In this document: positions 5,273-57,201 of the stretch, one piece after another | How the letters are laid out: each line of letters opens with the position of its first letter | Position numbering within the stretch: the first letter of the stretch is position 1 | Source of the DNA: Candidatus Omnitrophota bacterium | GTDB lineage: Bacteria > Omnitrophota > Gorgyraeia > Gygaellales > Profunditerraquicolaceae | NCBI GenBank assembly: GCA_016208765.1 | Contig: JACQXK010000085.1 | Span: 4,814 to 68,813 of the forward strand | Direction of reading: 5' to 3' | DNA: 64,000 bases | Program-made: the position numbers and the translations under genes | The notes under the pieces: model-generated | What the model was told of the DNA's origin: nothing | Database searches by the model: none | The model's input: the letters and a program-made list of their open reading frames with translations, nothing else

Positions 5273-5318
5273 ATTGCCTCGCAGAAGATTTTTCCATAAA
5301 TTTAAAAGGGAATTTATA

Positions 5319-25193: not shown

Positions 25194-26207
25194 TCAAAAT
25201 CTCAATTTATTTACTGCTACTTTTATATGTTCTTTACTAAGGTGGCTATAAATCATCGTGGTTGTAATTGAAGAGTGCCCTAAAAGATCTTTCACGGTGT
25301 TTAAATCTACTCCATTCATAACTAAATGAGAAGCGAAGGTGTGTCTTAGTGTATGCCAACCAATACCCATTAATTTCCCTATTTTCAGGATCCTTTTGAA
25401 TACCCGTCTTTGATTGGTGGTGTCAAAACAAGGCCCTTTTTCCTTGCGTAGAGGAACCAAGATAGATCTAAGCTTATCATGTAAGGGTATTACCCTGAAT
25501 TTCTTTGATTTAGTGGTAAAACCCTCTTTATTCTTTACGGTGATCTGTTTTCGTGTGAAATCTACATCTGACCATTCCAAGCTGAATAGTTCCGCTTGGC
25601 GCATACCGGTATATATAGCAGTGGCAATAACTGGATATAAGACAGTATCCCTGTCTGTATAAATATCAGGGTTCTGCGCAGCAGTAAGTAATTCTTCTAT
25701 TTCTTCTCTGCTTAAAAATCTTTTTGGGTTTAATGGTATCTTATACTTTTTTACATTTCGTAGTGGATTATCAGTGACGTATTGCATTTTAACGGCCCAG
25801 TTAAGCCAAGCCTTAAGATTTATGATTGTGTTGTTTGCTTCATAAAGGCTGATTTTGTCGTTATTTATCCTATGGTTTAGATATTCCTGCAATTTGTTTT
25901 CAGAAATTCTATTAACAGTGAGAGTTGCCGCCCAAGACAAGAATCTTTTTATACGAGATTCTGTGCCAAGATTAACATCTCTTACACGGCGATGTTCATT
26001 GAATTGTTGATATTCTTCAAGAAGAGAAGAACAGTTTCTTTGATTATCTGGGGCAATGTTATTGCCTTCAATTAACGATTGATCTTGTTTATTCTTGAGA
26101 TATATAGCTTGTGAGCGGTCTTTAGTTTTTAAACTCCTGCGATAAAGCTTTCCATTCTTATAAAAAGCAAGCCAGTATATTTGATCGCGACGATATAAAT
26201 GTGACAT
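25194..26207 (-). CDS. int: Tyrosine site-specific integrase
   Basis: C-terminal catalytic motifs HTLRHTFASHLV...LLGHSSITTTMIYSHL (R..HxxR..Y). Confidence 0.9.
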   Translation of the reverse strand: MSHLYRRDQIYWLAFYKNGKLYRRSLKTKDRSQAIYLKNKQDQSLIEGNNIAPDNQRNCSSLLEEYQQFNEHRRVRDVNLGTESRIKRFLSWAATLTVNRISENKLQEYLNHRINNDKISLYEANNTIINLKAWLNWAVKMQYVTDNPLRNVKKYKIPLNPKRFLSREEIEELLTAAQNPDIYTDRDTVLYPVIATAIYTGMRQAELFSLEWSDVDFTRKQITVKNKEGFTTKSKKFRVIPLHDKLRSILVPLRKEKGPCFDTTNQRRVFKRILKIGKLMGIGWHTLRHTFASHLVMNGVDLNTVKDLLGHSSITTTMIYSHLSKEHIKVAVNKLRF

Positions 26208-40139: not shown

Positions 40140-40583
40140 ATGAAAGACCCTAATAAACATAAACTTACCCACGAAGAACAATATTATGTAAAACTTTGGC
40201 TCGCAGAAGATTGTGGATATTCAGAAGTGCTTTCCCGCCTCAAAGAACAATTTAATAAAGAAGTTATTCCTTGTGCCCTTACATATTACACACATCATTA
40301 CAAAGAAGAAATTCAAAAAATTCGCCATGAAATAAATTCTAATATTCTTAATATTCCAATTGCCAATAAAGAAGTACGATTGCGTAGACGAGAAGAAATT
40401 TATAAAATTTATAAATCAAAGGGTGAATTAGAAAAAGCACGTGCTGTTTTAGATGAAGCCAAGGAAGAAATGGAACCTAAGCAAACAGGTGTCCACGTAG
40501 GAGTGAGGGTTGATAATAGTGATAGACCAAGACGTTCAGAAGAGTGTCTCAATAGAGTTATTGAAGTTCTCGAAAGAAGATAA
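40140..40583 (+). CDS. Putative terminase small subunit
   Basis: 147 aa, directly upstream of large terminase; not recognised by motif. Confidence 0.35.
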   Translation: MKDPNKHKLTHEEQYYVKLWLAEDCGYSEVLSRLKEQFNKEVIPCALTYYTHHYKEEIQKIRHEINSNILNIPIANKEVRLRRREEIYKIYKSKGELEKARAVLDEAKEEMEPKQTGVHVGVRVDNSDRPRRSEECLNRVIEVLERR

Positions 40584-42078
40584 AGAAGAGGCGCTTTGTA
40601 AAGCTAAGGCTGAGCGCGCTGCTTTAAACTCTAATCATTTCTGCGAATTCGTCCTTAAGGATGAAAAAGGTCAGCATATCAATCAGGCTGATATACATCG
40701 GGAAATAAATTGGCACATAGATGAATGCCGCAAAAGAAAACTTAATTGTGGGATATTGGCACCTTTCAGGCATGGAAAGACTGAGCAGGTTGTTATCGCA
40801 CGCACATTGCAATTCTTGGGCGAGAATCAGAATAATAGAGTGTTTATAGTCTGTAACGCCGATGATAATGCCGCGGCTCGCGTTGAATCAATAGGCAAGT
40901 ATATTGACCATGACGAGGATTATCATTCTGTGTTCCCAAATGTCCGGGCCGGTGACAAAACACAATGGGGAAGGCATAAATTAGTTGTTAAAAGAGAGAG
41001 CTTGTCTAAGGATGGTTCTGTTGAGGCTTGGGGTATTACGTCATCAGGAACAGGTGCTGGTTGCGATTTTATGATAATTGATGACCCTGTTGACCTGCGT
41101 AACGCGATACTTAACCCTGCAATGCGGCAACAGGTAAAAGAAGCGTTTAAGAATGTCTGGAGCACGCGTTTAGCTCCTAATGGATTTAAGATTTATATTG
41201 CAACATCGTGGCATGATGACGATTTGACATCTGAGCTTCGTAAGAATTCAGAGTGGTGTTTCTTGGTGATAAAGGTATCTGATGACTTCTCAAAATTTGA
41301 TTGTGAGTCGTCGCTAAAAGGTAAATTCAGCATTCCCTTGTGGGATCAATGGCCAAAAGAGAAACTTATCGCTCGTTGCCGAGAAATAGGCACGCGCGCT
41401 TTTAATAGAGGATATCGGCAGTGCGCTTTGTCTGATGAGGATAGGACATTGCCGCATTATTTGCAGGTGTTTAAGCATGGAGTAAGGGTGAGTGATTTAG
41501 TTAGCCCTACTTGGCCGCGTGTCTGCGGCATGGATCCATTTGGTAAATTTGTTGTCATATTTACTCTTGCTTTGGGCCCTGATGGGAAACGATACCCTGT
41601 TGAGATACGCCGAGGTAAGTGGAATTCTACGGAAGCTGTGATGCAGTTAATAGATGCATATCAAACACATCATCATCAGTTAATTGTGGTGGAGAATAAC
41701 GCATCACAGGATGCGATAATCCAATGGGCTATGGAAAAAGGACAGCAACTTCCAATATGGCCATTTACCACAGGCAAACAGAAAGCGGATCCGGAGAATG
41801 GATTGCCAAGTTTAGATGTTGAGTTTGCAAATAATTCTTGGGTCTGTGCCATGGGAAGTGAACATCAGCCGGATTGCGGATGTGGTTTTTGTGTTTGGAA
41901 AAGAGAGATGTCAGAGCATCCAATAGGAGAGGCAGCTGATACTGTTATGGCTTCGTGGTTTGCGCGTGAGGCGGCAAGGGCATTGACTTTTAGAATAACT
42001 GAGCAACCGATGATTAATGAAGACATTGTAACTATGGAAGATGTTGGCCTTGAGCGCGTGGCCATAGGTGACTATTAA
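40510..42078 (+). CDS. terL: Terminase large subunit (ATPase + nuclease)
   Basis: Walker A-like ILAPFRHGKTE, Walker B MIIDDP; 522 aa; true start uncertain (74-nt overlap with upstream ORF). Confidence 0.75.
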   Translation: MIIVIDQDVQKSVSIELLKFSKEDKEEALCKAKAERAALNSNHFCEFVLKDEKGQHINQADIHREINWHIDECRKRKLNCGILAPFRHGKTEQVVIARTLQFLGENQNNRVFIVCNADDNAAARVESIGKYIDHDEDYHSVFPNVRAGDKTQWGRHKLVVKRESLSKDGSVEAWGITSSGTGAGCDFMIIDDPVDLRNAILNPAMRQQVKEAFKNVWSTRLAPNGFKIYIATSWHDDDLTSELRKNSEWCFLVIKVSDDFSKFDCESSLKGKFSIPLWDQWPKEKLIARCREIGTRAFNRGYRQCALSDEDRTLPHYLQVFKHGVRVSDLVSPTWPRVCGMDPFGKFVVIFTLALGPDGKRYPVEIRRGKWNSTEAVMQLIDAYQTHHHQLIVVENNASQDAIIQWAMEKGQQLPIWPFTTGKQKADPENGLPSLDVEFANNSWVCAMGSEHQPDCGCGFCVWKREMSEHPIGEAADTVMASWFAREAARALTFRITEQPMINEDIVTMEDVGLERVAIGDY

Positions 42079-42089
42079 GAGAGGATAGC

Positions 42090-44342
42090 ATGTTTGGATT
42101 AAGCATAGTAAGCAAAAAAGAAATTCAGCAATTAAAGGAAACAGTTACAACATATTCCCGGACACTTGAGGATATTGGCTGGATTAATCTTAGCCTTGAA
42201 AGCAATTCTCAAAATCAATTATTCTCTGAAGGCTTTAAGAAGATGCTTAAGACATGCAAAATTTACTATTACAAGAATCCTCTTGCAGGTCACTGGGTGC
42301 ATTTGACCACTGAGTTTGTGTTTGGTGAAGGTGTTTCGGTTCCAAAGGCTAAGGACAAAAAGATTCAGGAGATAGTAGATAAGTTTTGGAAGGATTCTGA
42401 TAATCAAAGGGCATTAACATCTTTTTCAGCGCAGCATTTGCTTAATAATAAGTTGCAGTATGAGGGCAATTTGTTTTTTGCATTGTTTACCGACGATGAA
42501 GGTAATGTTAGGGTGAGGATATTTAATACTGAGGAAATAGCTGACGTTATAAATGATGCCGATGACAGGATGCGGCCGCGCTTTTATAAGGTTGGAGTAA
42601 GAGACAAGAGATATAATTTTATGTCTGATAGTTATGACATCAGCTTTCAGAAATATATTTATTATCCTGACAAGGATAATTTTAACGTGGAGGATTATAA
42701 CATTCCTGAGGAGAAGATCGGGAAAGGAGCTGTTATATTTCATGTAAAGATAAATTGCGACATAAATGATAAATTTGGGATACCTGAGTTGTATCGCGGA
42801 ATTGACTGGATACGTGCGCATAGGGATATGGCTGGTGATTTAGCAACATTAATAAAATCACTTTCTACATTAGCATGGAAGAAAAAGGTCAAAGGCACTC
42901 CGGCGCAAGTCACCGCATTAAAATCAGCGCTTAATTCTAAGATTGACATGACTAATAGGACGGTGGCCGCAGGATCTGTTCAGTATGAAAACGAGGGTAT
43001 AGATACAGAGCCGATTAATACACCGACAGGCGGCGTTAAGATTGGCACTGATGGGCTTAGGCAAATGAAGCTGATGGTTTGTTCTGCTTCGGGTATATTT
43101 GAGCATTACTTTGGCGATCCTTCTACAGGTAACCTTGCGACAGCAACAAGCATGGAGTTGCCCATGCTTAAAAAGTTTATCATATATCAGAAGTTGTGGG
43201 AGGCAATTATCAATGAGATTCTGCAGTATCAGATAAATCAAAAAATTGACGCGGGATTATTAGAGGGTAGCGTTGATTATGATGAGAAAACAAGCCGAAA
43301 GATTTATGAGACGAGTTTGGATAGGTTAATTGACATAGATTTCCCGCCGATATTAGAGAAAGATTTAAAGGCAATAGGCGAGGCTTTGGATGTGGCAAGA
43401 AGGAATAATTTGATTTCTGATGAGTCAGCGTCACGGATGTTCTTGTTGGCAGCGAATCTTAACAATATTGATGAGGAAATAAAGAAAATAGATTTTACAA
43501 GGCAATTATCTTTTCAAAGCGCAGGGATATTTGGGCAACAGTTACCTAATGGTCAGGATAAGCCAAAAGAGGGGATTCCTAAAAAAGAAGATGCTCCGAT
43601 TAAGGAGGCAATTTATACCCCTAAGCATGAGCCGGGATTAAGATTTGCAAGAAAGACTAATTATGTATTGCAACGCATGAATGGATATCGTAAGGCATTA
43701 GCGACAAGCTTTACTGATTTTAAGAAGAATATAAAGGAATCAACAAAGAGCGCAGGGCCTAAGGGAGTTGTGGTAGGTAATATAGTTGATCTTGATGAAC
43801 ATTTGGCTGGGCTTAAGAAAAGTATGATTAAAGCAGCGGAGAGTTATTTTCCTGTTGCGATTGATATTGGAAAGAAATTTCTGCAGTCACATCTTAAAGA
43901 GCAGAAAGTCAAAGAATCTCTTTTTGAGGCAGCAAATAAGGAAATATCTTTATTGGATGAGAAATTGTCATGGAATGATGAATATGTTTCTACTTCTTTA
44001 ATACCTGATATTAAGAATAAAGTTATGCAAGTTGTTCGCACATCTTATGATAGCGAAGAAGAATTTAATAAGGCAGTTAATGCTGCGATAAATAGTTTTG
44101 AGAGTAGAGTAGAGCAGTACGCCGGGGCATTTTGGCATGTAGAAGAATCGGCGGTAAAGGAAGCTGGTGTTGGCACAGGGTTAAGGGTTAATTTTGTTGG
44201 TGCTGATGATGAGTCAACTTGTGATGGATGTAATAAATCAATGGAAGGAAATCCATATTTAATAGATGAGGCCCCGGAGCCGGGAAGTCATGAGTGTGAT
44301 GGTAGGTGCCGTCACGCATTACAAATTATAGAGGAGGGTTAA
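42090..44342 (+). CDS. Portal protein, probably fused to a minor-head (Mu F-like) domain with C-terminal Cys cluster
   Basis: 750 aa immediately after terL; size and position; CDGCN...HECDGRCRH at C-terminus. Confidence 0.6.
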   Translation: MFGLSIVSKKEIQQLKETVTTYSRTLEDIGWINLSLESNSQNQLFSEGFKKMLKTCKIYYYKNPLAGHWVHLTTEFVFGEGVSVPKAKDKKIQEIVDKFWKDSDNQRALTSFSAQHLLNNKLQYEGNLFFALFTDDEGNVRVRIFNTEEIADVINDADDRMRPRFYKVGVRDKRYNFMSDSYDISFQKYIYYPDKDNFNVEDYNIPEEKIGKGAVIFHVKINCDINDKFGIPELYRGIDWIRAHRDMAGDLATLIKSLSTLAWKKKVKGTPAQVTALKSALNSKIDMTNRTVAAGSVQYENEGIDTEPINTPTGGVKIGTDGLRQMKLMVCSASGIFEHYFGDPSTGNLATATSMELPMLKKFIIYQKLWEAIINEILQYQINQKIDAGLLEGSVDYDEKTSRKIYETSLDRLIDIDFPPILEKDLKAIGEALDVARRNNLISDESASRMFLLAANLNNIDEEIKKIDFTRQLSFQSAGIFGQQLPNGQDKPKEGIPKKEDAPIKEAIYTPKHEPGLRFARKTNYVLQRMNGYRKALATSFTDFKKNIKESTKSAGPKGVVVGNIVDLDEHLAGLKKSMIKAAESYFPVAIDIGKKFLQSHLKEQKVKESLFEAANKEISLLDEKLSWNDEYVSTSLIPDIKNKVMQVVRTSYDSEEEFNKAVNAAINSFESRVEQYAGAFWHVEESAVKEAGVGTGLRVNFVGADDESTCDGCNKSMEGNPYLIDEAPEPGSHECDGRCRHALQIIEEG

Positions 44343-44343
44343 G

Positions 44344-44814
44344 ATGAAGAAGTTATTTCTTTTAGTATTAATGATTTTAGGATTATTCGGGGTCGCATTA
44401 GCCGCAGATAATGCAAGGAATATTGGAAGTAACAAGAACATAGATCATGCGGTTATTGTTGCTGATTTAAGTAATGGATATACCCAAAAGGTAAATGCTA
44501 ATGGAACAGCTGTGGCGGCTGAGGATTTAAAGACAATTGCCTTTGTGAATAGCCAATCTGGAGGAGCTGAGTTGGTGTTAACGGGTGGGGCGACAGTTTA
44601 CGGAATTGTAGTTACAGGCACAACGAACAGTGATTGGGTAGCGGTATATGATGCGACATCTGCGACAGGAACGCCTGTTTTAGATGTGGTTACATCGGCT
44701 AATAACCCAACAGCTACGATTCCGATTCCCGGAGGAAGAAAGTTTTCTAATGGTATCTTTGTTGATTTAGGTACATCAACAACACATGCGGAGATTATGT
44801 ATATTCCGGATTAA
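44344..44814 (+). CDS. Secreted Thr/Gly-rich beta-type protein (Sec signal peptide)
   Basis: MKKLFLLVLMILGLFGVALAADN signal peptide. Confidence 0.55.
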   Translation: MKKLFLLVLMILGLFGVALAADNARNIGSNKNIDHAVIVADLSNGYTQKVNANGTAVAAEDLKTIAFVNSQSGGAELVLTGGATVYGIVVTGTTNSDWVAVYDATSATGTPVLDVVTSANNPTATIPIPGGRKFSNGIFVDLGTSTTHAEIMYIPD

Positions 44815-44815
44815 T

Positions 44816-45859
44816 ATGGTTGATAAAGTTATAAAAGCAATACTTTTATTATCACCGATAGTCTATATCAGAAGCGTCGCTATGAATAATTTTGACTTGG
44901 TTATTCTACATATTTCAGCGATGGTTTTATTTGTGGCTACGTTCTTTGATAAGCCTAAGAGGGATTTTGTAGGACAAAAATATATAGTTTATTTGTTGGG
45001 AATTGGATTGTTTAGCGCGGCGATGCATGGGTTTAATTTATTCATCATGGATTACTTAGTCAATGTGTTCCTTGCGGTTGTATGTCTTTATGTCGTTATC
45101 AGGTATTGTCGGGACATTGAAGGGTGTTTTAAATTTATCGTATATGCGGGAATAATTAATATCTTGGTATGGGTGGTTCAGGTGATGGGATTTTCTCCGG
45201 TGATCCCCAATTATAAATACATGGAAACAAATGGAGGAATAATTGGCAACGCGCCAAGACTTTCTATGTATTTAAGCATTATATCACCATTTTTTATCGC
45301 CATGAATAAGATTTGGTGGGTGTTATTAATTCCTATCCCTCTAATTATGCGTGAGGCAAACATCTTAATGGCTTTGTTGTTGTTATTCTTATTAAGTGAT
45401 TTTAGACTTAATTACAAATTATGGGTAATAGCTTTTTTTGCAGGAGCAATGTTTTTATTTCACGATAAGTTAATTAATTCTATTGCGTCAAGAATAACTA
45501 CATACAAAGAGGTTTTGACCGGATTTTTTAATCATCCTGTGAGTGGATATGGATTAGGTATATATCCTTATGGTCAGGAGATGGTTAATACAAAAATAGA
45601 TTATGCAGTTTATAGTAGTTTATTGCAGTTTATTGTTGGAGCGGGGATGTTAAGTATTCCTTTAGTATATGAAACTATTAAACGTTATATTAAGAATTTC
45701 AGCAGGTTTCCAGAAAGCTTATCTTTGGCAATTCTTTTAATGCTTTGTATCGGAGAATATCCTTTAGAGATCAAGAGGCTTTGGATAACTATAATTATGA
45801 TAACTGGATTTTTTGTTATTAGGAGAATTGATGTCGCAAAGCAAAATTGTAACAGTTAA
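44816..45859 (+). CDS. Polytopic membrane protein, Wzy/WaaL (O-antigen polymerase/ligase)-like
   Basis: About 10 hydrophobic helices with a larger loop; family assignment by architecture only. Confidence 0.4.
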   Translation: MVDKVIKAILLLSPIVYIRSVAMNNFDLVILHISAMVLFVATFFDKPKRDFVGQKYIVYLLGIGLFSAAMHGFNLFIMDYLVNVFLAVVCLYVVIRYCRDIEGCFKFIVYAGIINILVWVVQVMGFSPVIPNYKYMETNGGIIGNAPRLSMYLSIISPFFIAMNKIWWVLLIPIPLIMREANILMALLLLFLLSDFRLNYKLWVIAFFAGAMFLFHDKLINSIASRITTYKEVLTGFFNHPVSGYGLGIYPYGQEMVNTKIDYAVYSSLLQFIVGAGMLSIPLVYETIKRYIKNFSRFPESLSLAILLMLCIGEYPLEIKRLWITIIMITGFFVIRRIDVAKQNCNS

Positions 45860-48302: not shown

Positions 48303-48665
48303 ATGGCAAACAATTTTAAGTATTCAGGAAAAAGAATTACTTTAGCTCCTGCGGCACCTGTTGCAAGTGGTGCATTATGCAGAGTTAAAGGTTTTGTTGG
48401 CATTCCAATGACCAACAGAGTGGCTGGCGAGTCGGTTGCTTTTGCATTAGAAGGCGTGTGGGGAATGACTGTTGCAGTGCAAGGAGTAGTTCCTTCAATC
48501 GGTACTATTTTGTACTGGGATACAACTACAGGAGCATTGTCAATCGGTGCTGCTAATGATGATTATCCAGCAGTCAAGGTTGTTACAACTCCAAGTTCCT
48601 CAACCGGTGCATTTGATGGACTGCTCTTGCCGCAAGGAAGGCCTTACGGGCAGGAACAGAGCTAA
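48303..48665 (+). CDS. Small head protein (DUF2190-like decoration/stabilisation protein)
   Basis: 120 aa Gly/Val-rich, directly upstream of capsid gene. Confidence 0.4.
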   Translation: MANNFKYSGKRITLAPAAPVASGALCRVKGFVGIPMTNRVAGESVAFALEGVWGMTVAVQGVVPSIGTILYWDTTTGALSIGAANDDYPAVKVVTTPSSSTGAFDGLLLPQGRPYGQEQS

Positions 48666-48698: not shown

Positions 48699-49688
48699 AT
48701 GCGTAAGAGTTTATTAGGGATGTATCACGATTTAAAGGAATCCGCAAGCACAAGCGATTTTCCTTATCTCTTGGGTAATACCATGTATAAGAAATTGCTT
48801 GGGCGCTTTAACGGGTTTCCGTCTCCTTGGAGACAATATACAATGCTCGGCGATCTGGCTGATTTCAAGGCTCACGACAGAATTATTTTGTCTGAGGCTC
48901 CTGATCTGGATGAGATTGAGGAGAATGGTAATTACAAAGAGGCAAAATTTTCAGATGCAAAATATTCCATTCAGGCAAAAACCTTCGGGAAAACTTTTTC
49001 CGTTGGCCGCACCGCGATAATCAATGACGACCTGCATGGAATTATGCAAATGCCTCAGATGTTTGGCCGCGCAACAGTAAGGACAATGGTTAAGAGGATT
49101 CTTGGTTTATTGTCCGGTAATGCGAATGCCTACGACGGCAGTGCAATTTTTGCTTTACGTACAGCAACGACTCGCAACTATACTGCGAATGTTTCTTTAG
49201 CGAATACAGCTGCCGGCATGGCCGCGATTTCTGCTTGTATGCAGAGAATTCGTTCTCAGGTAGAGCCAAGCTCAGGAGAGTTAATGGGATTAACCCCTAA
49301 GTATTTGTTAACTGGTACAACGCTTGCTCCAGTTGCACAGCAGTTAATCAAATCGGCACAGATATTGCCGGTGAGCACAAATGGTGGTGGTACTTACAAT
49401 GTCATCGGGACGCTTACTCCTATTGAGGATCCGTTAATTGACATTGTTTTAAGTTCTTCTTGGTGGGCTGTTTTAGCAGATCCACAGGATTGTCCGGTTA
49501 TTGAGGTAGGGTTCTTAAATGGCAAGGCTGAGCCCGATTTACTGGTTTCCAAGGCTGAAATGGTCAGCATGGCCGGTGGTTCTGAAGATCCTTATGGATA
49601 TGAGTTTGATGATATTCACTACAAAGTGCGTCACGATTGGGCAGCACAGTTAGGATATTATCAAGGTATCTGCAGGGGTAGTTCGTAA
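48699..49688 (+). CDS. Putative major capsid protein
   Basis: 329 aa, strong RBS aggagg, position in head module. Confidence 0.5.
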   Translation: MRKSLLGMYHDLKESASTSDFPYLLGNTMYKKLLGRFNGFPSPWRQYTMLGDLADFKAHDRIILSEAPDLDEIEENGNYKEAKFSDAKYSIQAKTFGKTFSVGRTAIINDDLHGIMQMPQMFGRATVRTMVKRILGLLSGNANAYDGSAIFALRTATTRNYTANVSLANTAAGMAAISACMQRIRSQVEPSSGELMGLTPKYLLTGTTLAPVAQQLIKSAQILPVSTNGGGTYNVIGTLTPIEDPLIDIVLSSSWWAVLADPQDCPVIEVGFLNGKAEPDLLVSKAEMVSMAGGSEDPYGYEFDDIHYKVRHDWAAQLGYYQGICRGSS

Positions 49689-49742: not shown

Positions 49743-50120
49743 ATGGCATTTACATTTGACCCGACGACTAATTTAGGAAAAGTAAGATTTCTAATAGGTG
49801 ATATGACGGATTCCGGGCATGTTTTTGAGGACGCCACGATAAATGCGGCCATATCGTTTACATCAAGCGATTTATATGCAGCAGCAGCATTATGTCTTTA
49901 TAGTTTATCTGCATCAAAGGCATTACTTGCTAAGAGAAAAGCAGCGGGGAAGTATTCAGAAGATTTGACAGCGATAGCAAAGGAATGCAGGGAGACAGCA
50001 AAGGCTTACGAAGAGAAATCAAGAAGTATTCCATCAGAAGCACAGGCAGAGCAGTTCCTTACCGATTTTAATTATAACCAGATTTTACAAAATAAAGCAT
50101 TAAGAGATGAGTCCGATTAA
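49743..50120 (+). CDS. Head-tail connector (gp6-like) candidate
   Basis: MAFTFDPTTNLGKVRFLIGDMTD N-terminus reminiscent of head-tail adaptor proteins. Confidence 0.35.
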   Translation: MAFTFDPTTNLGKVRFLIGDMTDSGHVFEDATINAAISFTSSDLYAAAALCLYSLSASKALLAKRKAAGKYSEDLTAIAKECRETAKAYEEKSRSIPSEAQAEQFLTDFNYNQILQNKALRDESD

Positions 50121-50613
50121 ATGGAAGCAGCATTATTGGCATACAGTTTCTTGTGCGCGTGAGCGTATCAACGAGATTGTGCGTAGGGCCCAAGGCGCAA
50201 AGAACGTGCTTGATGCAGGATGCAATGAGGGGTTCTTATCTCAGGCCTTAAAGGAATCAGGATTAAAAGTTACCAGTATTGATATAGAAGATAAAGAGAT
50301 ATTAAAAGCAAAAGAAATATTTGGTATTGATGCAGTAAAGGCGGATATAAATAAGTTACCTTTTTCCGACGGAGAGTTTGACTTGGTTATAGGCGGGGAA
50401 GTGTTAGAGCATTTAGTTAATCCGGGGAAAGGATTATCTGAGTTGTTTAGGGTATCAAGTGACAGAGTAATAATATCGCTTCCTATTGGTGAATATTGGC
50501 TCGGGTGTTCTGAGCATTTGTGGCAAATAGATACTACGGTTATAGAGCATGATCAGGGAATAAAAGAAGAGCTGATTAAAAAAATACTTGTTATGGAGTT
50601 TAAGAAAAGATGA
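50107..50613 (+). CDS. Class I SAM-dependent methyltransferase
   Basis: Motif I VLDAGCNEG, motif II FDLVIGGEVLEHL. Confidence 0.7.
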   Translation: MSPIKWKQHYWHTVSCARERINEIVRRAQGAKNVLDAGCNEGFLSQALKESGLKVTSIDIEDKEILKAKEIFGIDAVKADINKLPFSDGEFDLVIGGEVLEHLVNPGKGLSELFRVSSDRVIISLPIGEYWLGCSEHLWQIDTTVIEHDQGIKEELIKKILVMEFKKR

Positions 50614-51521
50614 AGATAGCAATTTTATCTTGCGCACATACCGGTAATTTTGGAGATGACATTATTTTTGAGGGAGTGCTTAGAATATTATCAGCAATGT
50701 TTCCTAAGGGTGGAAAAGTTAGTCATTTCTTGAGAATTAACAAGGGAAATATTGACGAGATAAATAAGCACGATTTGCTGGTTATTGGCGGAGGAGAATT
50801 ATTATCTAATTCAGATATTCTTGAACAGATAACAAGCAATGAAATAAATATACCATATATGTTTTTGTGTGTAGGCATAGGAAGAGAAGAGGATATAAAA
50901 CCATATCTTCATAAGATTAAGCCGTTGTTTTGGTCTGTTAGGTCTTATGAAGGAGTGAATATTGTTAAAAGGCTTGGCATAGAAAACGTATGTTTTCAAG
51001 ATGATCCGATATTCTGGTGTTTGACTGATAAAAAAGAAAAAAATAATTCAATAGCTGTTTGCTTAAAAGCGATACATAAAAATAATGAGTGGATAAATGA
51101 ATTTGTAATAGAGTTAGATAAAATAATCTCAGACGGAGTTAAGGTTTCATTAGTAGCTTTAGGTAATAAAGAAAGGAATAAAATAAATTACTGTGGAGAG
51201 GAAATATTTATCTCAGATTGCAACGATTATACTTTGGCGCACCAGATAAATATATTACTTAAGAATAGCATCCCAGTTATTTGCTACAAAGATAATCCTA
51301 TTGAGTTTTTAAATATATTAGCTTCTTTTAAAGGGATTGTTTCTGAAAGGCTGCATGGGGCATTAGCAGCATATCATGCCGGGATTGATTTTAAGTCTAT
51401 TCCCTATCACAACAAAGTAAATAAATTTTTGAACACATATTCAATTCAAGATAAGGCCATTGGAGATAATCCTAAAGATATCTGTTACGCGATAAAAAGT
51501 TTATGGAGAGAGGCCCGCTGA
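50610..51521 (+). CDS. Polysaccharide pyruvyl-transferase-like protein
   Basis: N-terminal AHTGNFGDDIIFEGVL motif characteristic of PS_pyruv_trans (CsaB/WcaK) family. Confidence 0.45.
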   Translation: MKIAILSCAHTGNFGDDIIFEGVLRILSAMFPKGGKVSHFLRINKGNIDEINKHDLLVIGGGELLSNSDILEQITSNEINIPYMFLCVGIGREEDIKPYLHKIKPLFWSVRSYEGVNIVKRLGIENVCFQDDPIFWCLTDKKEKNNSIAVCLKAIHKNNEWINEFVIELDKIISDGVKVSLVALGNKERNKINYCGEEIFISDCNDYTLAHQINILLKNSIPVICYKDNPIEFLNILASFKGIVSERLHGALAAYHAGIDFKSIPYHNKVNKFLNTYSIQDKAIGDNPKDICYAIKSLWREAR

Positions 51522-51539
51522 GGCCCAGAAAGGAATAGT

Positions 51540-52541
51540 ATGAATATAATTCATGAATTGAATCAGTTGAATTATGGTGGAGTTGAAAAAGTGATTAGAA
51601 ATATTATTAAATACGACAAAGAGAATAATCATCAAATTGTGGCATATAAAGACGGCCCGTTTAAAAAAGAATTTGAGAAAATAGGCGCGAGAGTGGTGTT
51701 TCTACCAAAAGAAGGAACGGTTGATTTTGATGCAGATGTGATACATGTTCATTCGGGTGGCGGTATAAGCGAAATGGCGAAAATATTAGGCAGGAATTTT
51801 CCTGTTGTAGAGACAATTCATTCTCCTGTTCGTTCACCAATGACAAATGAATTTATATCGCAGAGAGTAGGTGTTACTGAGGCTGTTTGTCGGATGAATT
51901 CAAATTGCATTACGATTTATAACGGACTTGATTTGGATACATTAGAGCCGGATAGATATCCTGAGGATGTAAAAAAAGAACTTGGGATTCCTGATGGCGT
52001 TCCTATTGTGGGGAGGCTTGGACGTATAGGTAAAGATAAATGTTTAGAAGAGTGGATTTTAGCTTGTTACTATTTGCAACAGCAGGGTGTAAATTTTATT
52101 CCTTTAATCGTAGGCGGTGAAGCAGCAGGGCTTGACGGCTATGTCGGAAAATTGAAGCTGATGGCGGCATCACTGCCGGTTAAAGGAATTATTTGGGCCG
52201 GTCATCGCGCGGACGTGGCAAATTATTTACAGATAATGGATGTTTTTCTTTATCCTTCTCCGACTGAGGGCTTTGGGCTTGTTTTTGCCGAGGCAATGTA
52301 TTCCGGTTCGGTCGTGGTTACATATAAAAACGATATCTCAATGGAAGTTGCAGGCGGATATTCGGTGCTTACCGAGAAGAGTATTAAAGGTTTAGTTGAT
52401 GGAGTTAAGAAAGCTTTAGATATCAACATAAGAGACAATATTGTTCCAATGGCTCATGACTTTGTAGCAGAGATGTTTAACGCTGAGAGAATGACAAGTG
52501 AATATCAGGAAGTTTATAAGAGGGTAGTTAGATTAAGATGA
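51540..52541 (+). CDS. Glycosyltransferase family 4
   Basis: GGVEKV N-terminus; C-terminal PSPTEGFGLVFAEAMYSGSVVV (E-x7-E) motif. Confidence 0.7.
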   Translation: MNIIHELNQLNYGGVEKVIRNIIKYDKENNHQIVAYKDGPFKKEFEKIGARVVFLPKEGTVDFDADVIHVHSGGGISEMAKILGRNFPVVETIHSPVRSPMTNEFISQRVGVTEAVCRMNSNCITIYNGLDLDTLEPDRYPEDVKKELGIPDGVPIVGRLGRIGKDKCLEEWILACYYLQQQGVNFIPLIVGGEAAGLDGYVGKLKLMAASLPVKGIIWAGHRADVANYLQIMDVFLYPSPTEGFGLVFAEAMYSGSVVVTYKNDISMEVAGGYSVLTEKSIKGLVDGVKKALDINIRDNIVPMAHDFVAEMFNAERMTSEYQEVYKRVVRLR

Positions 52542-53128
52542 GTGAGTTTACAGATATCTTAACCGCGGTTGTAAATATAAAAAGATTTACTCCTTATCTT
52601 TTAGACAATATAAATGTGGCAGCGTCTTTGTCAGCAAATAGGCAACCTGAGAAATCCTGCCGGCTTGCATTGGAAATTGACGGATGCACGGTGTCAACTG
52701 GATTGGTTACAGTTTCAGGAAACACGATTGAGACTTTCTCATTTACAAACAATGGTTTTAAGGTAGGGATAAAAGATTTTACAAGTGTATCGTCAATTCT
52801 TGTCTCGGGGATATCTAATGGTTTTATTCAGGTTAAGGCAGTCAGTAAAACAGGACAACCGGTGAATCAGGAGAAAGATATTTATAATTCTCTTGCGGTA
52901 AGATTTGAAGCATTAGAGGGAAGTATAAGAATGATGGCTCCGGGCGAGCAGAAAAAAGCAGAATATAAAATGTATGCGGCGCCTGACAAAATTTTACAAG
53001 AGAATGATTTGGTTTATGCTGTTTCCGGGATAGTAGGAATTACTGTTGGTTTAATATCTTTTGTGGATACACTTATGGATTTTGATGGCGCAACAGATCA
53101 TATAGAGTGTGAAATAATGACGCCTTAG
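52538..53128 (+). CDS. Hypothetical protein inside glycosylation island
   Basis: ORF only. Confidence 0.4.
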   Translation: MSEFTDILTAVVNIKRFTPYLLDNINVAASLSANRQPEKSCRLALEIDGCTVSTGLVTVSGNTIETFSFTNNGFKVGIKDFTSVSSILVSGISNGFIQVKAVSKTGQPVNQEKDIYNSLAVRFEALEGSIRMMAPGEQKKAEYKMYAAPDKILQENDLVYAVSGIVGITVGLISFVDTLMDFDGATDHIECEIMTP

Positions 53129-53148
53129 AGGCGCAAAAAGGAGAGGGA

Positions 53149-55545
53149 ATGAAATATTCTATAATCATTGCAACACATAACGGATTAGAGCATACATCAA
53201 GATGTTTAACAAGCATATTTAATTGTTCAAAAGATTTTGAGCTTATTGTTGTTGATAATGGCTCAACCGACGGGACTAAAGGTTATTTGCAGGAATTAAA
53301 AGCGCGTAATGAAAATGTCAAAGTGATTTCTAATCCTGAAAATACTACTTTTTCAATCGCTAATAATCAGGGATTAAAGATAGCTGAAGGTGAGTATATT
53401 GTTTTTTTAAATAACGATACCGTGGTTTGTAATGAATGGCTTGAAAGATTGAATGCTCATTTACATAAAATTCCATTAAAGAATCTGGGTATTGTTGGGC
53501 CGGTAACAAATAACTCTAATGGTAAACAATGTGTTGGAACGCAGGATCCGGAAGTATGGCATCAAGAAAATAAGGGTAGATGGGCGCATGCAGGCAGGCT
53601 TTATGGATGGTGCATGATGATGCGTAAGAGTTTACTTGATGAAATTGGTGGTTTTGATGAAAGATTTATCAACTCTCATGAGGATAATGATTTATGCCTC
53701 AGGGCGCAGTTAGCCGGATATAAGCTTGCTATTGCCTACGATACTTATATACATCATACCGGTCAAGGGACACTAAGGAAAGTGTTTGATAATCAGGGGT
53801 ATTTGGATAATGGGTATAAGAATCGTGAGCTTTATTATGATAAATGGTATAGCGATAAATTGAAAAAATTAGTTGCAGTTTACAGGACAAATGGTGGGAA
53901 GTGGTTAGAAGAATCGTTAAGACAGACTTCTAAGTTTGCTGATTCAATATTGATACATTTTTGCCGCGCGCCACAAGATTTTGAGATGGATGTTACGTTT
54001 ACTGGAAACTTTGAAGGGAAAGGAAAATACTATCCTAAACGCGATGAATATATAAAACTTCTTAAACAAAAATTTCCTAAAGTAATCTGGACAGAATTCT
54101 ATGACGGTATCTTTCAGGAAGATTACGAACGTGGCCGGCTGTTAGAATTAGCCCTGGAAATGCATGCAAAAGGTGAGGCTGATTGGTGTATTTCTGTTGA
54201 TGATGATGAAATATACGAAGATAAATTTATAGAGAAGGTTCAGAAAATGATGTCACCGCGTAATCCTGAGATATTCGGTTATTGGTGTAACTGGCGTACG
54301 ATATGGGATAGGCGCGGAAAAGATGAGTATTATAGGACTGATTCCACCTTTGGTCAGTTTAGTAATTATCGGTTCTTTAAACTCATGAAGAATCAGGAGA
54401 TTAATTCTCATGGACACCCGGAAGGGCATCATTGTGGATCTGCTCCTCTTATGGCTGAGGAGAATTTGGCATGGTCAAACATTAGGGTAAAACACATGGG
54501 TTATGATACTCATGAGCAGAGGCAAAGAAAATATGAATTTTACGAGGCAAACGATCATTTTAAAGATGCGCGCGACATCGGTAATAAAGATTATTCTCAT
54601 TTGATAGATGTGAATGTTTCTCTTGAGAAATATCGTCAGGATAATGGCATCAGTTTAATCATGATGGTTAAAAATGAAGAAAAGCATATTTTAACATGTC
54701 TTGAGTCAGTTGCTCCGGTTATAGATGAGTTTGTGATTGTGGATACAGGATCAACAGACAAAACAGTTGAAATTGTGGAAAAATTCTCTAAATATTCTGC
54801 AGCGCCGGTTAAGATCTTTCATTCTCCTTGGGTTGATAATTATTCTATTCCAAGGAATTACGGAAAATTTCATGCTACAAAGCAGTGGATTTTAATGTTA
54901 GACGCTGATGAGAGGTTTAGTTATGAAGATTTAAGAAAAATTCATCAAATGAGCGAAACAGAAGCAGATGCAGTGATATTCCATGTAATTAATTATTTAA
55001 AAGCTCCCCTTTTTGGTCAAAAGCCGGTTTATGCTTCTACAGAATCGGTGAGGATGTATAGAAATAAGCCTGAGTTGTTTTATTCGGGGGTAATTCACGA
55101 AACAATTGATGATGCTATTTGCGCGATGACTAATAAGCAAGGATTAAAGGTGGCGCGTTCTCCGGTTGTATTACATCACTATGGATATCTTAAAGAGAAG
55201 AGAAAAGTTAACGATAAGCTTAATTATTACGAGATGCTCAACAACAAGCAAATTGAAGTAACAGAGGGAAAGGATCCGCGGCCGTATTTTAATCTTGCGC
55301 TGCATTATCTTAATGATGATAAAAAGCAGGAAGCCTTGAGGTGTTTCCAGAAAGCATTGGAGATAAATCCTAATTTTTGGCACGCAAATCAGCAAATGGC
55401 GGCGTTAAATATTCAAAGCGCCAAGGAATTTTTGACGAGAACAATTGATTCAATACCTGAACAGCATCCATTTAAGAAACAAGCGGTGACATTACTTGAG
55501 TATTTGAACAGCAATTCTTTTGGATATACAAAGGTGGGGGTTTAG
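53149..55545 (+). CDS. Tandem double GT2 glycosyltransferase with C-terminal TPR
   Basis: Two GT-A cores: IIIATHNG...VVDNGSTDGT...NNDT and LIMMVKNEE...VDTGSTDKT; C-terminal TPR-like NLALHYLNDDKKQEALRCFQKALEINPN. Confidence 0.7.
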   Translation: MKYSIIIATHNGLEHTSRCLTSIFNCSKDFELIVVDNGSTDGTKGYLQELKARNENVKVISNPENTTFSIANNQGLKIAEGEYIVFLNNDTVVCNEWLERLNAHLHKIPLKNLGIVGPVTNNSNGKQCVGTQDPEVWHQENKGRWAHAGRLYGWCMMMRKSLLDEIGGFDERFINSHEDNDLCLRAQLAGYKLAIAYDTYIHHTGQGTLRKVFDNQGYLDNGYKNRELYYDKWYSDKLKKLVAVYRTNGGKWLEESLRQTSKFADSILIHFCRAPQDFEMDVTFTGNFEGKGKYYPKRDEYIKLLKQKFPKVIWTEFYDGIFQEDYERGRLLELALEMHAKGEADWCISVDDDEIYEDKFIEKVQKMMSPRNPEIFGYWCNWRTIWDRRGKDEYYRTDSTFGQFSNYRFFKLMKNQEINSHGHPEGHHCGSAPLMAEENLAWSNIRVKHMGYDTHEQRQRKYEFYEANDHFKDARDIGNKDYSHLIDVNVSLEKYRQDNGISLIMMVKNEEKHILTCLESVAPVIDEFVIVDTGSTDKTVEIVEKFSKYSAAPVKIFHSPWVDNYSIPRNYGKFHATKQWILMLDADERFSYEDLRKIHQMSETEADAVIFHVINYLKAPLFGQKPVYASTESVRMYRNKPELFYSGVIHETIDDAICAMTNKQGLKVARSPVVLHHYGYLKEKRKVNDKLNYYEMLNNKQIEVTEGKDPRPYFNLALHYLNDDKKQEALRCFQKALEINPNFWHANQQMAALNIQSAKEFLTRTIDSIPEQHPFKKQAVTLLEYLNSNSFGYTKVGV

Positions 55546-55547: not shown

Positions 55548-56045
55548 ATGCCGGTATTTGGTGGTGAAGCAGTTGCTAAAAACATTAAATCCTTTGGCGG
55601 TGGATTTCTTAAGCATGTCAATAAGACTATGGAAATAGTGAGAGAAAGGCTTGATGATCGCGTTACTCGGAATATGAGTTTAAGGGATCACAATCTTCCA
55701 TACTTACGTAAGATTGGGCATCCTTATGCCGCAAGACATGGCGGTCAAGGTATGTCAATACACGATCCTTATTGGCTTGTGCATACGCAGGGTGGGAGAT
55801 TGTTAGCAAGTAAATCAAGCGGGGTTATTGAGGCGAGTGTTACAGGATCAACGCTTAAGGCAGGGGCGTTTGTTAAGTTAGACGAGAGTCAAGCTAAGTA
55901 TGCGTTGTATCTTATATACGGCACAAGCAAGATGATTCCGAGGGATTTTATGACAGGAAGCCTAATGCAGGAAAAGAATAAATTACAGGATTATTTGCAG
56001 CAGAATTTAAAAGACATGGTATTTAACTTTAAGCCGGTGGCATAA
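55548..56045 (+). CDS. Head-tail joining/head completion protein candidate
   Basis: Position between head and tail genes. Confidence 0.3.
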   Translation: MPVFGGEAVAKNIKSFGGGFLKHVNKTMEIVRERLDDRVTRNMSLRDHNLPYLRKIGHPYAARHGGQGMSIHDPYWLVHTQGGRLLASKSSGVIEASVTGSTLKAGAFVKLDESQAKYALYLIYGTSKMIPRDFMTGSLMQEKNKLQDYLQQNLKDMVFNFKPVA

Positions 56046-56046
56046 A

Positions 56047-56460
56047 ATGGTTGAAGCTAAGGTATTTGAGAAGATTAGGCAGATATTAATAAATGATAAC
56101 ACGGTCGCAGGGTATGTGTCAGATAGGGTTTATACAGAGCATATAAGCTCAATCACGGATCCTGTGTATCCGGCAATATCATTACATCTTTTGCCCGGGA
56201 AAGCTAAGATAAATGTACCTACAATGGTGGAGATGGTTTTTCAGATAGACTTATGGTTTCCTTCCGGACAATGGACAGCTGATGATGTTTATGCTTGCTA
56301 TGGAAGAATAAGGACGTTATTGCATAGAGAAAATACTAAAGATACATCCATAGGAGTGACGATTATGAATATTTCTGAGGCGGGTGTTGGCCCAATGATG
56401 TATGACGAAGCAGTTGCCGGGTATCATTTACCAGTAAGATACAACGTGGTGGCGATATGA
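56047..56460 (+). CDS. Tail completion protein candidate
   Basis: Position. Confidence 0.3.
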   Translation: MVEAKVFEKIRQILINDNTVAGYVSDRVYTEHISSITDPVYPAISLHLLPGKAKINVPTMVEMVFQIDLWFPSGQWTADDVYACYGRIRTLLHRENTKDTSIGVTIMNISEAGVGPMMYDEAVAGYHLPVRYNVVAI

Positions 56461-56660
56461 CAGAGAAATGGATTTGCATAGCTTGTAAGTTTACGCTTGG
56501 TTTTATTGAAGATAAGAAGGTTATTAGGATTAAGCGTAAGGATTTATATGTTGAGACAGAAGGTGGAAAAGTCACAGAGATTTGTCCGCGATGTGGTAAA
56601 CCGAATACATTGACGGATGAAAAATACATAGAGAAAGGGGGTGAAAAATATGGCTTATAA
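56457..56660 (+). CDS. Small zinc-ribbon protein
   Basis: CIACKF...CPRCGKPN. Confidence 0.35.
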   Translation: MTEKWICIACKFTLGFIEDKKVIRIKRKDLYVETEGGKVTEICPRCGKPNTLTDEKYIEKGGEKYGL

Positions 56661-57201
56661 CGTACCTACGTATGATACGACAAGATTCTCATTTGGTCCC
56701 GGTGTGCTTTACATGGGCGCTCCTGGAACAACGCCATTGATTGAGGTTGGCGCGGTTAAGGGTAATCCTGAGTTTTCGATTGAAAGGACACTTTTGGAAG
56801 TGTTTCAGGGCAGCCCTAAATCTAAAGTAGCGCAGTATGCTACAAAAGAAGTAGCTATTTTGAAAGTATCCGGAATTGAATGGAATTTTGACAATCTTGC
56901 TTATGCCTTAGGTGCTGGCGTTACAGGCATAAATGGAACAGTTGAGACGTTTGAGTTTGGCGGCGATATGTCAGTTACTAATAGGGCATTGAGGTTTGTG
57001 CATCGGACTCCGGATGGTTCAACTATCGATCTGCATTTGTTTAAGGCAGAAGGATCGGGCAAAATAGCCGTTGCTTTCAATGAAGAGGATACGCATGAGT
57101 TTCCTTTTGAATTTCATACATTGGAGGGGACGACTGATTTTGCGGGTTCAGCTTTGGCGGCAAATAAGAAACATTTTAAAATCATTAGAACAAAAGCTTA
57201 A
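56650..57201 (+). CDS. Major tail (tube) protein
   Basis: About 184 aa, strong RBS agggggtg, immediately upstream of chaperone pair and tape measure. Confidence 0.55.
   Translation: MAYNVPTYDTTRFSFGPGVLYMGAPGTTPLIEVGAVKGNPEFSIERTLLEVFQGSPKSKVAQYATKEVAILKVSGIEWNFDNLAYALGAGVTGINGTVETFEFGGDMSVTNRALRFVHRTPDGSTIDLHLFKAEGSGKIAVAFNEEDTHEFPFEFHTLEGTTDFAGSALAANKKHFKIIRTKA

Follow-up and report, generated by a model that had tools for sequence, protein, structure and literature searches.

A putative virion-glycosylation module within the head-to-neck genes of an Omnitrophota prophage

Certain actinobacteriophages that carry an O-methyltransferase together with tandem glycosyltransferases (GTs) glycosylate their capsid and tail tube (Freeman 2023, as relayed in PMC11600133 and PMC12619734). 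The proven cases named in these citing papers are Che8 (cluster F1) and Corndog (cluster O) (Freeman et al. 2023, Cell Host Microbe 31:1216). Protein acceptors are also served by GmaR, the flagellin O-GlcNAc transferase of Listeria, and by SunS/ThuS, the S-glycosyltransferases of glycocins, which combine GT2 and TPR domains. To our knowledge, virion glycosylation of the Che8 and Corndog kind has so far been shown only in phages of mycobacteria. In the chlorovirus PBCV-1, the glycan of the major capsid protein is methylated and is built by virus-encoded, cytoplasmic, multidomain GT and methyltransferase enzymes; one of them, A064R, joins two rhamnosyltransferase domains and a methyltransferase domain and acts in capsid glycosylation. 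Phage seroconversion modules (GtrABC, Wzy, O-acetyltransferase morons) consist of membrane-embedded components, map close to att/int and are expressed during lysogeny. The Maf proteins (MptE-like/DUF115) are flagellin nonulosonic-acid glycosyltransferases (PMC11339370).

The locus compared here with these systems lies in the window, the whole 64,000-nucleotide stretch of Omnitrophota DNA that was analysed. With confidence somewhat above even, we read it as a virion-protein glycosylation module inside the head-to-neck block of a temperate siphovirus-like phage, acting late and in the cytoplasm. An ORF check of the window located the five ORFs of 50107-55545 exactly where the sequence-only reading had placed them, all on the forward strand and tightly coupled to head and neck genes on both sides. 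Upstream are the genes of a head decoration (cement) protein (48303..48665, +; Pfam Phage_cement_2 7.8e-12, phrog_122 head decoration) and of a major capsid protein (MCP) of the Mu gpT/Phage_capsid_4 type (48699..49688, +; Pfam Phage_capsid_4 2e-39), which is 100% identical to an NCBI protein from a Candidatus Omnitrophica MAG. A conserved 125-aa protein of unknown function (phrog_18316, phrog_1732) is encoded directly before the enzymes (49743..50120, +). It is found between the MCP, or inserts adjacent to the MCP, and the enzyme genes in every clade relative that extends past the MCP, and its position and conservation suggest that it is probably the head-tail adaptor. The last of the five genes is directly followed by a Neck1/tail completion gene (55548..56045, +; phrog_5 4.2e-5), an arrangement kept in relatives, and by three neck/tail genes of conserved order (56047..57201, +) for proteins of 137 aa, 67 aa and 186 aa, the last being tail-tube-like (phrog_2175, 5.9e-8). 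A tape measure gene is also among the flanking genes. These flanks bear out the proposed placement of the enzymes between capsid and tail genes.

The overlapping stops and starts described for this block were recovered as well. The first 14 nt of the methyltransferase gene lie within the upstream 125-aa gene, overlaps of 4 nt join the pyruvyl transferase gene to the methyltransferase gene and the fourth gene to the GT4 gene, and a gap of 2 nt separates the end of the 798-aa gene from the neck gene. Judging from gene order and junctions, the genes of the four enzymes, all predicted to be soluble, share a transcript with the adaptor, stopper and tail-completion genes and are coupled to them in translation. 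The GC content (0.32-0.39) and GC3 (0.28-0.36) of the five genes were within the range of other phage genes; the lowest GC in the block, 0.321, is that of the pyruvyl transferase gene. No promoter or terminator excess was found around the enzyme genes. The integrase is located at 25194-26207, and the enzyme genes are not beside it or the repressor but inside the late head-neck block.

The first two genes encode a class I SAM-dependent methyltransferase (50107..50613, +; Pfam Methyltransf_11 5.5e-16) and a polysaccharide pyruvyl transferase family protein (50610..51521, +; Pfam PS_pyruv_trans, PF04230, 9.2e-18). The latter match covers profile positions 1-279 of 280 and scored 65.6 bits against a cut-off of 25.3; a sequence search for a PDB relative of this protein returned none. 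The third encodes a GT4 (GT-B, retaining) glycosyltransferase (51540..52541, +), which matches Pfam Glycos_transf_1 at 3e-19 (69.6 bits against a cut-off of 26.4) and carries the EX7E motif EGFGLVFAE at residues 243-251. All three families had been correctly named from the sequence alone. The fourth product, a 196-aa protein (52538..53128, +), had been listed as unknown and matches no Pfam family. It has the beta-barrel fold of stoppers, plus an additional beta domain of some 95 aa at the N terminus, and its gene lies between the adaptor and tail-completion genes. We therefore assign it as a structural neck protein, the head-to-tail stopper (head-closure protein) of the phage. Because of this, the enzyme genes do not form one contiguous cargo block.

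The fifth gene (53149-55545) encodes a 798-aa protein with Glycos_transf_2 matches in two stretches (Pfam, 2.1e-54), Glyco_tranf_2_4 at residues 508-599 and TPR_1 (5.8e-8) at residues 712-743. Domain 1 (residues 1-245; 53149..53883, +) is an ordinary GT2 (GT-A) with Glycos_transf_2 at residues 4-166, the motifs LNNDT and EDNDLCLR, and PDB matches to 6p61, chondroitin synthase, GalT1 and SpsA. Domain 3 with the TPR repeats (residues 501-798; 54649..55545, +) is of the GmaR/SunS type. It matched GmaR (4.5e-22), 7msk (1.4e-14) and SunS (3.8e-14) in a phmmer search against PDB, and phrog_13126 (SPbeta YolJ) at 5.7e-36. The GmaR alignment covers the whole GT domain (query 7-200 against chain 11-191), so that the GT-A domain aligns end to end with its DxD present, and the motifs VKNEE, DTGSTD, LDADE and HHYGY are shared with GmaR and SunS. 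The TPR-type helical domain follows directly C-terminal to the catalytic domain, and the SunS and 7msk alignments extend into it. By sequence, this region belongs with GmaR and SunS, cytoplasmic protein glycosyltransferases. For GmaR, which adds its sugar to flagellin in the cytoplasm, the TPR domain has been proposed to bind the protein substrate (PMC9638930). Between the two lies domain 2 (residues 246-500; 53884..54648, +), with only sub-threshold Pfam matches (Glyco_tranf_2_4 0.04, Glycos_transf_2 0.089). When aligned with domain 3 by hhalign (E 6.7e-4 over 181 columns, at a probability of only 27%, which makes the assignment weak), its motifs VDDDE and KHMGY paired with LDADE and HHYGY. 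The protein thus probably has three GT-A-like domains, with a divergent one in the middle; the GT2 and TPR parts of the tandem GT-A/GT-A/TPR architecture suggested earlier stand, and the count of two GT-A domains probably does not.

The conservation of the block was examined in relatives, namely 15 IMG/VR loci with an MCP 44-74% identical and sufficiently long downstream sequence, plus the NCBI MAG locus L081. The order MCP, 125-aa protein, variable genes, GT4, stopper, 798-aa GT, neck and tube was found in all 15, and was identical in L081. The GT4 (48-66% identical in 15/15) and the 798-aa GT (54-68%) match or exceed the conservation of the MCP; in L009, L011 and L014 the MCP is 44-47% identical, against 56-61% for the GTs. 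GT4, stopper and the 798-aa multi-GT form the conserved core of this phage clade, and only the tailoring genes vary. With its kept order and capsid-like conservation, this core is not an insertion, and no att-like or IS-like repeats were found flanking the enzyme genes. The term island, used in the sequence-only reading, is not supported: the outcome was the opposite of the one (absence from related phages, flanking att/IS) by which that reading would have recognised an unrelated insertion. The methyltransferase and pyruvyl transferase genes belong to the variable tailoring slot. Nine of the 15 IMG/VR relatives, as well as L081, have the former; the latter is confined, at this position, to L003, L004/L005/L015 and L022. 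The variable genes of relatives encode glycan or protein tailoring enzymes, namely O-methyltransferase-like, MptE-like/DUF115, radical SAM-SPASM and NDP-sugar dehydratase proteins. MptE-like or similar proteins occupy it in L002, L006-L009 and L011; where the Pfam match was checked, L002 scored 80.3 bits and L006 33.3 against a cut-off of 34.6 bits.

Related arrangements were seen beyond the clade. In a second clade (MCP 27-29% identical), L043 and L051 encode a protein of about 1000 aa directly 3' of the MCP that fuses GT2, TPR, methyltransferase and GT4; its methyltransferase domain is homologous to the window methyltransferase. GT genes of similar size adjoin the MCP in L160 and L156 of that clade, and other lineages (L096, L097, L102, L071) have a GT of this type where the head and tail genes meet. 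No isolated phage had an MCP more than 32% identical to that of the window.

Virion glycosylation, already named beforehand as an option, was the best-fitting reading and in our judgement a rather probable one. It is counted in its favour that the second-clade fusion links these activities, that the enzyme genes enclose a genuine structural gene, that of the stopper, and that the C-terminal GT matches GmaR/SunS and none of the four enzymes has a hydrophobic segment. The constant position and strong conservation of the core, the placement of this GT type in other lineages, the tailoring enzymes in the variable slot and the actinobacteriophage precedent are counted with these. Most likely, as read from the sequence, the prophage and at least 13 related phages use soluble enzymes to coat their own virion proteins with a decorated sugar chain. 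Expressed late, the C-terminal GT2 and TPR part of the 798-aa protein would recognise a folded virion protein (capsid, decoration protein, tail tube or neck) through its TPR repeats and, still in the cytoplasm, attach an initial sugar, donated by a nucleotide sugar, to a Ser, Thr or Cys residue, a step modelled on GmaR (flagellin) and SunS (sublancin). Chain extension would fall to the N-terminal GT2, the probable middle GT-A domain and GT4, capping with O-methyl and pyruvate ketal groups to the methyltransferase and pyruvyl transferase, and the assembled particle would bear a lineage-specific surface glycan. Such a glycan might serve masking, stability or adhesion. The decoration protein, the MCP and the 186-aa tail-tube-like protein are candidate acceptors that we infer. 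The decoration protein has a Ser/Thr-rich stretch, TTPSSSTG (TAVSATDG and similar in relatives), before a conserved F-x-GLLLPQ, which is only suggestive of an acceptor site; no sequon enrichment was found in the structural proteins.

An unlikely alternative is that the GTs build or modify a lipid-linked host glycan (LPS, capsule or envelope polysaccharide) and alter receptor or serotype, with display through host export machinery or an upstream Wzy_C-like membrane protein. The families PS_pyruv_trans, GT4 and generic GT2 are typical of polysaccharide synthesis, a point that counts against virion glycosylation, and the N-terminal 100 residues of the 798-aa GT2 carry the PHROG label 'GtrB-like O-antigen conversion' (2.3e-15), a likeness to phage-borne glycan-modifying seroconversion enzymes. 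However, the four enzymes have no hydrophobic (membrane) segment and include no priming polyprenyl-phosphate transferase or flippase. Unlike seroconversion modules, they are soluble and lie in a late operon with coupled junctions, away from the integrase and without moron-like placement, and their core is conserved like the capsid. A polytopic membrane protein and a secreted protein are encoded 4 kb upstream of the enzymes; the sequence-only reading had linked such Wzy-like and secreted proteins to the block. The former (44786-45859) has about ten hydrophobic segments, and its AF2 model (pLDDT 55) was too poor to use; the name Wzy-like is supported only indirectly, by two of seven homologues that match Wzy_C (PF04932, best 3.2e-6) but not by its own sequence, which has no Pfam match at E<=1. 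Of the close relatives, L001 alone gave a tblastn match to the pair, and unrelated phages showing no GT genes carry it too. It is a separate mobile two-gene cassette that is not co-inherited with the GTs, and the proposed link is not supported. The C-terminal GT, being of the protein-glycosylating GmaR/SunS type, also speaks against the seroconversion alternative.

The enzymes could also act on a non-virion target, either a host protein in lytic growth (a surface appendage, defence sensor or translation factor) or a phage peptide or non-structural protein, with gene position reflecting only late timing. Capsids are not the substrate of the closest characterised GT2-TPR relatives, which modify flagellin in the case of GmaR and a secreted peptide in that of SunS, and GTs of this type occur outside structural modules in viral contigs such as L099 and L100, which counts against virion glycosylation. 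We nevertheless regard a non-virion target as improbable: several unrelated phage lineages place this GT immediately behind the MCP or where head and tail genes meet, it is interleaved with the stopper gene, and the block showed no gene for a glycocin-like precursor peptide. That the enzymes glycosylate phage DNA bases to counter restriction is very hard to credit, even though hypermodified DNA is a known substrate of GT-A and GT-B enzymes from phages (Pyle 2024, as cited in PMC12619734). The scan of ten early-region ORFs identified a helicase, a primase and a repressor and detected no base-hypermodification genes, the enzyme genes lie within the structural block, and the TPR domain and GmaR/SunS kinship indicate protein acceptors. 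We know of no role for a pyruvyl transferase on DNA.

The proposed virion glycosylation can be set beside the described systems. As with GmaR and SunS/ThuS, the whole catalytic domain aligns within residues 501-798, TPR repeats follow, the enzyme is predicted to be soluble and a protein acceptor is expected. Unlike in these enzymes, the GT2-TPR part is here the C-terminal third of a protein with one or two more GT-A domains. GmaR differs further in its antirepressor domain, absent here, and glycocin clusters in their precursor-peptide, transporter and immunity genes, which were not seen in this phage neck module. The MptE-like proteins in the variable slot of relatives, though none is in the window, resemble Maf in belonging to a family known for direct protein O-glycosylation. 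By analogy, A064R may be compared in make-up with the L043/L051 fusion, although PBCV-1 is a eukaryotic giant virus with N-linked glycans.

As far as the papers citing the Che8 and Corndog work go, soluble phage GTs are encoded there, as here, with structural genes, with an O-methyltransferase in cluster O; the GTs and methyltransferase of the window lie within the virion structural operon. The logic of a phage-autonomous cytoplasmic glycan coat would also be shared, their enzymes modifying capsid and tail-tube subunits and those of the window being proposed to do likewise. Mycobacterium phages were absent from the tblastn matches of the 798-aa protein, its domain 1 and GT4, and the likeness is therefore functional rather than by descent; this lack of similarity to the proven enzymes counts against virion glycosylation. 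In Corndog, gp36-38 precede the major head gene, whereas the enzymes here lie amid adaptor, stopper and tail completion genes. They also differ in including a GmaR/SunS-type GT2-TPR, a triple-GT polypeptide and a pyruvyl transferase, and in their Gram-negative-type, uncultivated Omnitrophota host. A literature search found no paper describing such an arrangement, which leaves the earlier claim of novelty uncontradicted.

The five genes at 50107-55545 on the forward strand lie within the late region of a temperate phage. Host genes, among them those for GlmU, DnaB, BamA and an LpxC-FabZ fusion, fill approximately 1-25 kb of the window, and the first phage gene encodes a tyrosine integrase (25194-26207, minus strand), after which come a CI/LexA-like repressor, a helicase and a primase. 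The late region opens with the terminase (40510-42078) and the portal (42090-44342). Between the portal and the scaffold-like genes lie those for a secreted 156-aa protein and a polytopic 357-aa membrane protein. The scaffold-like genes, one for a coiled-coil product and one for a 551-aa protease/scaffold-like protein, precede the decoration protein gene (48303-48665). The major capsid protein (MCP, 48699-49688) is followed by a 125-aa protein (49743-50120), probably the head-tail adaptor, and then by the five genes. Directly after these come Neck1, the tail-completion protein (55548-56045), and further downstream two small proteins, a tail-tube-like protein, chaperones and the tape measure. 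The MCP was 100% identical to a Candidatus Omnitrophica MAG protein at NCBI (71.5-kb contig). Among isolated phages, none matched the DNA from 48 to 58 kb, and none had an MCP more than 32% identical to that of the window. A profile search of genome contigs with the MCP alignment gave no matches, so no cultured host relatives could be named.

All five open reading frames were recovered, and the domain assignments of the sequence-only reading were borne out with strong Pfam statistics. The block begins with a class I SAM methyltransferase (50107-50613; Methyltransf_11, 5.5e-16) and a member of the pyruvyl transferase family (50610-51521; PS_pyruv_trans, 9.2e-18), for which no relative was found in the PDB by sequence. 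A GT4 glycosyltransferase (51540-52541; Glycos_transf_1, 3e-19) carries its EX7E motif at residues 243-251. It is followed by a gene for a 196-aa protein without a Pfam family (52538-53128) and by a gene for a 798-aa protein (53149-55545), which matched Glycos_transf_2 in two stretches (2.1e-54), Glyco_tranf_2_4 and TPR. The genes are tightly joined: the first overlaps the gene before it by 14 nt, two junctions are 4-nt overlaps of the ATGA type, gaps of 18 and 20 nt occur within the block, and only 2 nt separate the 798-aa gene from the neck gene. The block showed no excess of promoter-like or terminator-like sites.

The 196-aa protein had 18 homologues, every one of them unannotated, and its sequence gave only chance-level matches in the PDB. 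Its identity was drawn from fold comparison, by which the gene is a structural one encoding the predicted head-to-tail stopper. The stopper fold is expected in the C-terminal half, where most of the invariant residues are found, and given that placement the first ~95 residues are expected to form an additional beta domain. The stopper of L081, an NCBI MAG locus, is shorter (116 aa), and BLASTP placed it within 59% of the query length. With a structural gene among them, the enzyme genes are interleaved with neck genes and do not form contiguous cargo, which replaces the earlier picture of an unknown protein inside one continuous island.

The MCP alignment led to 80 IMG/VR loci, onto which all window proteins were mapped by tblastn. 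Seventeen loci had an MCP 44-74% identical to that of the window; two were too short to inform, leaving 15 that represent about 13 distinct phages. GT4 was present in all 15, the stopper in all 14 loci reaching that far, and the 798-aa protein in all 12 extending to it, with the same neck and tube genes downstream. The same gene order was seen in L081, supported by independent gene calls and Pfam marks. Identities in the relatives were 48-66% for GT4 and 54-68% for the 798-aa protein; these proteins were thus conserved like MCP, and in distant members more than MCP. The variable genes sit between the 125-aa protein and GT4, and in one locus, L009, also between the stopper and the 798-aa gene. 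Nine of the 15 loci, and L081 as well, have the window methyltransferase; three distinct phages (L003; L004/L005/L015; L022) have the pyruvyl transferase. Elsewhere the slot encodes a Methyltransf_24/O-methyltransferase-like protein, radical SAM-SPASM proteins, an NDP-sugar dehydratase/epimerase, a second class I methyltransferase, and MptE-like/DUF115 proteins, the family of the Maf flagellin glycosyltransferases. By gene content, the arrangement is a conserved core with a swapping slot of predicted tailoring genes.

A search for att-like and IS-like repeats around the block gave only short imperfect matches, none of which bracket it. A 48-nt direct repeat of 71% identity (53337-53384 and 55107-55154; NNQGLKIA and TNKQGLKVA) lies within the 798-aa gene, and reflects the paralogy of its first and third glycosyltransferase domains, not the boundary of a mobile element. 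GC and GC3 of the five genes fell inside the range of the other phage genes, with the pyruvyl transferase lowest. A horizontally inserted island was rejected on synteny and composition; the block described as an island in the sequence-only reading is clearly neither missing from the relatives nor flanked by att or IS elements.

In two close relatives, L001 and L002, an additional 5-8 kb of genes separates MCP from the adaptor-like gene. Secreted proteins homologous to one another are encoded there (L001 12330-14132, L002 17392-18621), with far more N-x-S/T sequons than expected, at 34 (15.4 ± 3.2 expected) and 15 (5.6 ± 2.0 expected), respectively. Other Ser/Thr/Ala-rich repeat proteins are encoded in the same stretch.

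The 798-aa protein appears to be composed of three parts. Residues 1-245 form an ordinary GT2 domain. Residues 246-500 had no significant database match and only sub-threshold Pfam GT2 matches. In a profile-profile comparison by hhalign, they aligned with domain 3 (residues 501-798) over 181 columns (E 6.7e-4, probability 27%), pairing VDDDE with LDADE and KHMGY with HHYGY. This segment is probably a third, divergent GT-A domain, an assignment of low confidence. Residues 501-700 aligned with the whole catalytic domain of Listeria GmaR (4.5e-22), and also matched SunS and a related solved enzyme (~1e-14) and the PHROG that contains SPbeta YolJ (SunS). The motifs VKNEE, DTGSTD, DADE and HHYGY are common to this segment, GmaR and SunS, and TPR repeats come next. 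SunS catalyzes the S-glycosylation of a peptide. GmaR attaches GlcNAc to flagellin, and recognition of the protein substrate has been proposed for its TPR (PMC9638930).

From the gene content, order and conservation observed here, we infer reaction steps and an acceptor. The best-supported model, which we regard as fairly probable, is late-phase cytoplasmic glycosylation of one or more virion proteins. The GmaR/SunS-type unit would start a glycan on the protein, the other glycosyltransferase domains and GT4 would lengthen the chain, and O-methylation and pyruvylation would cap it. The glycan might be carried by the decoration protein, in which a Ser/Thr-rich stretch precedes a conserved motif, by MCP, by the tube or by the extra stopper domain. 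The structural proteins of the window showed no N-x-S/T sequon enrichment and no obvious acceptor tails.

The sequence-only reading had offered virion glycosylation and surface-glycan seroconversion of the host side by side; the former stands as likely, while the latter is disfavoured and seems improbable. The enzymes are soluble, with no hydrophobic segments in any of the four, and they are accompanied by no flippase, priming transferase or Gtr-type component. The late position, the coupled junctions and the core-gene behaviour likewise argue against conversion of the surface. Its single apparent support is the upstream pair, a Sec-signal beta-rich protein of ~156 aa (44344-44814) followed by a protein of ~350 aa with ~10 membrane segments (44786-45859), previously linked to the block as secreted and Wzy-like proteins. 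This link dissolved, as the pair is a separate mobile cassette. Homologous pairs (secreted ~157 aa, membrane ~345 aa) lie directly after MCP in unrelated SU10-portal-type phages in which no glycosyltransferase genes were seen (L082 7479-9041 and L084 7491-9023; blastp 1e-20 and 4e-24, 32-36% identity), and among the close relatives the cassette was detected only in L001 (~4430-5825). Two of seven membrane-protein homologues matched Wzy_C, the O-antigen ligase family, and the structure model of the window protein was too poor for use (pLDDT 55). The cassette may act in periplasmic O-glycosylation or in exclusion. Modification of a non-virion protein by the enzymes of the five-gene block is also unlikely in our view. 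Glycosylation of phage DNA is very unlikely, because no base-modification genes were detected among the ten early-region ORFs scanned.

The two cassette-bearing phages L082 (3467-5114) and L084 (4726-5121) also encode a 131-aa prepilin-peptidase-like (Peptidase_A24) protein upstream of the capsid gene, and L082 alone has a Cas12f1-like TNB (TnpB-type) protein within its structural block.

Enzymes of the same type were found in other phage lineages. A second clade, its MCP 27-29% identical to that of the window, has a gene for a single ~1000-aa protein immediately downstream of MCP. In L043 (3896-6901) this fusion contains GT2, TPR, a class I methyltransferase and GT4, uniting activities encoded by separate window genes, and its methyltransferase domain is homologous to that of the window. 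L051 (10826-13873) has the same layout by sequence, and L156 and L160 likewise place a glycosyltransferase directly after MCP, the L160 gene (7992-10958) being of similar size. A scan with the alignment of domain 3 and TPR reached 268 viral contigs. Among those inspected, in L096 a 790-aa glycosyltransferase precedes Neck1, tube and tape measure; in L097 one of 932 aa lies immediately ahead of the tail genes; and in L102 an MCP of a different PHROG family is followed by a small gene and an 833-aa glycosyltransferase. L071 has a methyltransferase, GT2 and GT4 between several putative head/neck-region ORFs upstream and a 379-aa ORF, and in L099 and L100 the glycosyltransferase stands in a non-structural context. 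We tentatively propose that these systems may form an unrecognised broad class of virion glycosylation outside the actinobacteriophages, including Omnitrophota phages, with GmaR/SunS-type enzymes fixed beside capsid or neck genes in several unrelated uncultivated lineages. The fast-swapping tailoring slot (methyl, pyruvyl, Maf-like, radical SAM) might then give each phage its own capsid 'glycotype', like bacterial O-antigen diversity.

The variable slot poses the question of what selects for diverse capsid glycans without antibodies; capsid-sensing host defence, proteases, grazing and adhesion are possible answers. A host ORF of the window (132-5093, 1653 aa) matched the phage-exclusion protease Lit (1.1e-5) and an M48 metalloprotease only weakly, at residues ~1088-1258, and its product may be a giant protein that includes a zincin-like domain. 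Capsid peptides are sensed by Lit-type proteins, and any relevance of this ORF to capsid masking is speculation.

To our knowledge, only a few actinobacteriophages have been shown to glycosylate their virions with enzymes of their own, and no paper describing the present arrangement was found in the literature. If the module glycosylates virions, the trait is not peculiar to mycobacterial phages but would be one that recurs among environmental phages, put together independently each time from different enzyme families, and important enough to be retained as core genes between capsid and tail. The module is a compact, soluble and self-contained putative protein-glycosylation toolkit, with a TPR-bearing initiator, extenders, and methyl and pyruvyl caps, and co-expression in E. 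coli would allow it to be tested and put to use. Among known systems, virion glycosylation by actinobacteriophages comes closest. In cluster O, an O-methyltransferase and three tandem glycosyltransferases modify capsid and tail tube, as reported in a paper citing Freeman et al. 2023 (PMC11600133), and a second citing paper places actinobacteriophage glycans at the C-termini of capsid and tube subunits (PMC12619734). The enzymes of the window have no detectable sequence similarity to the actinobacteriophage enzymes. The position also differs: the Corndog glycosyltransferases are encoded upstream of the major head gene, whereas those of the window lie among the neck genes.
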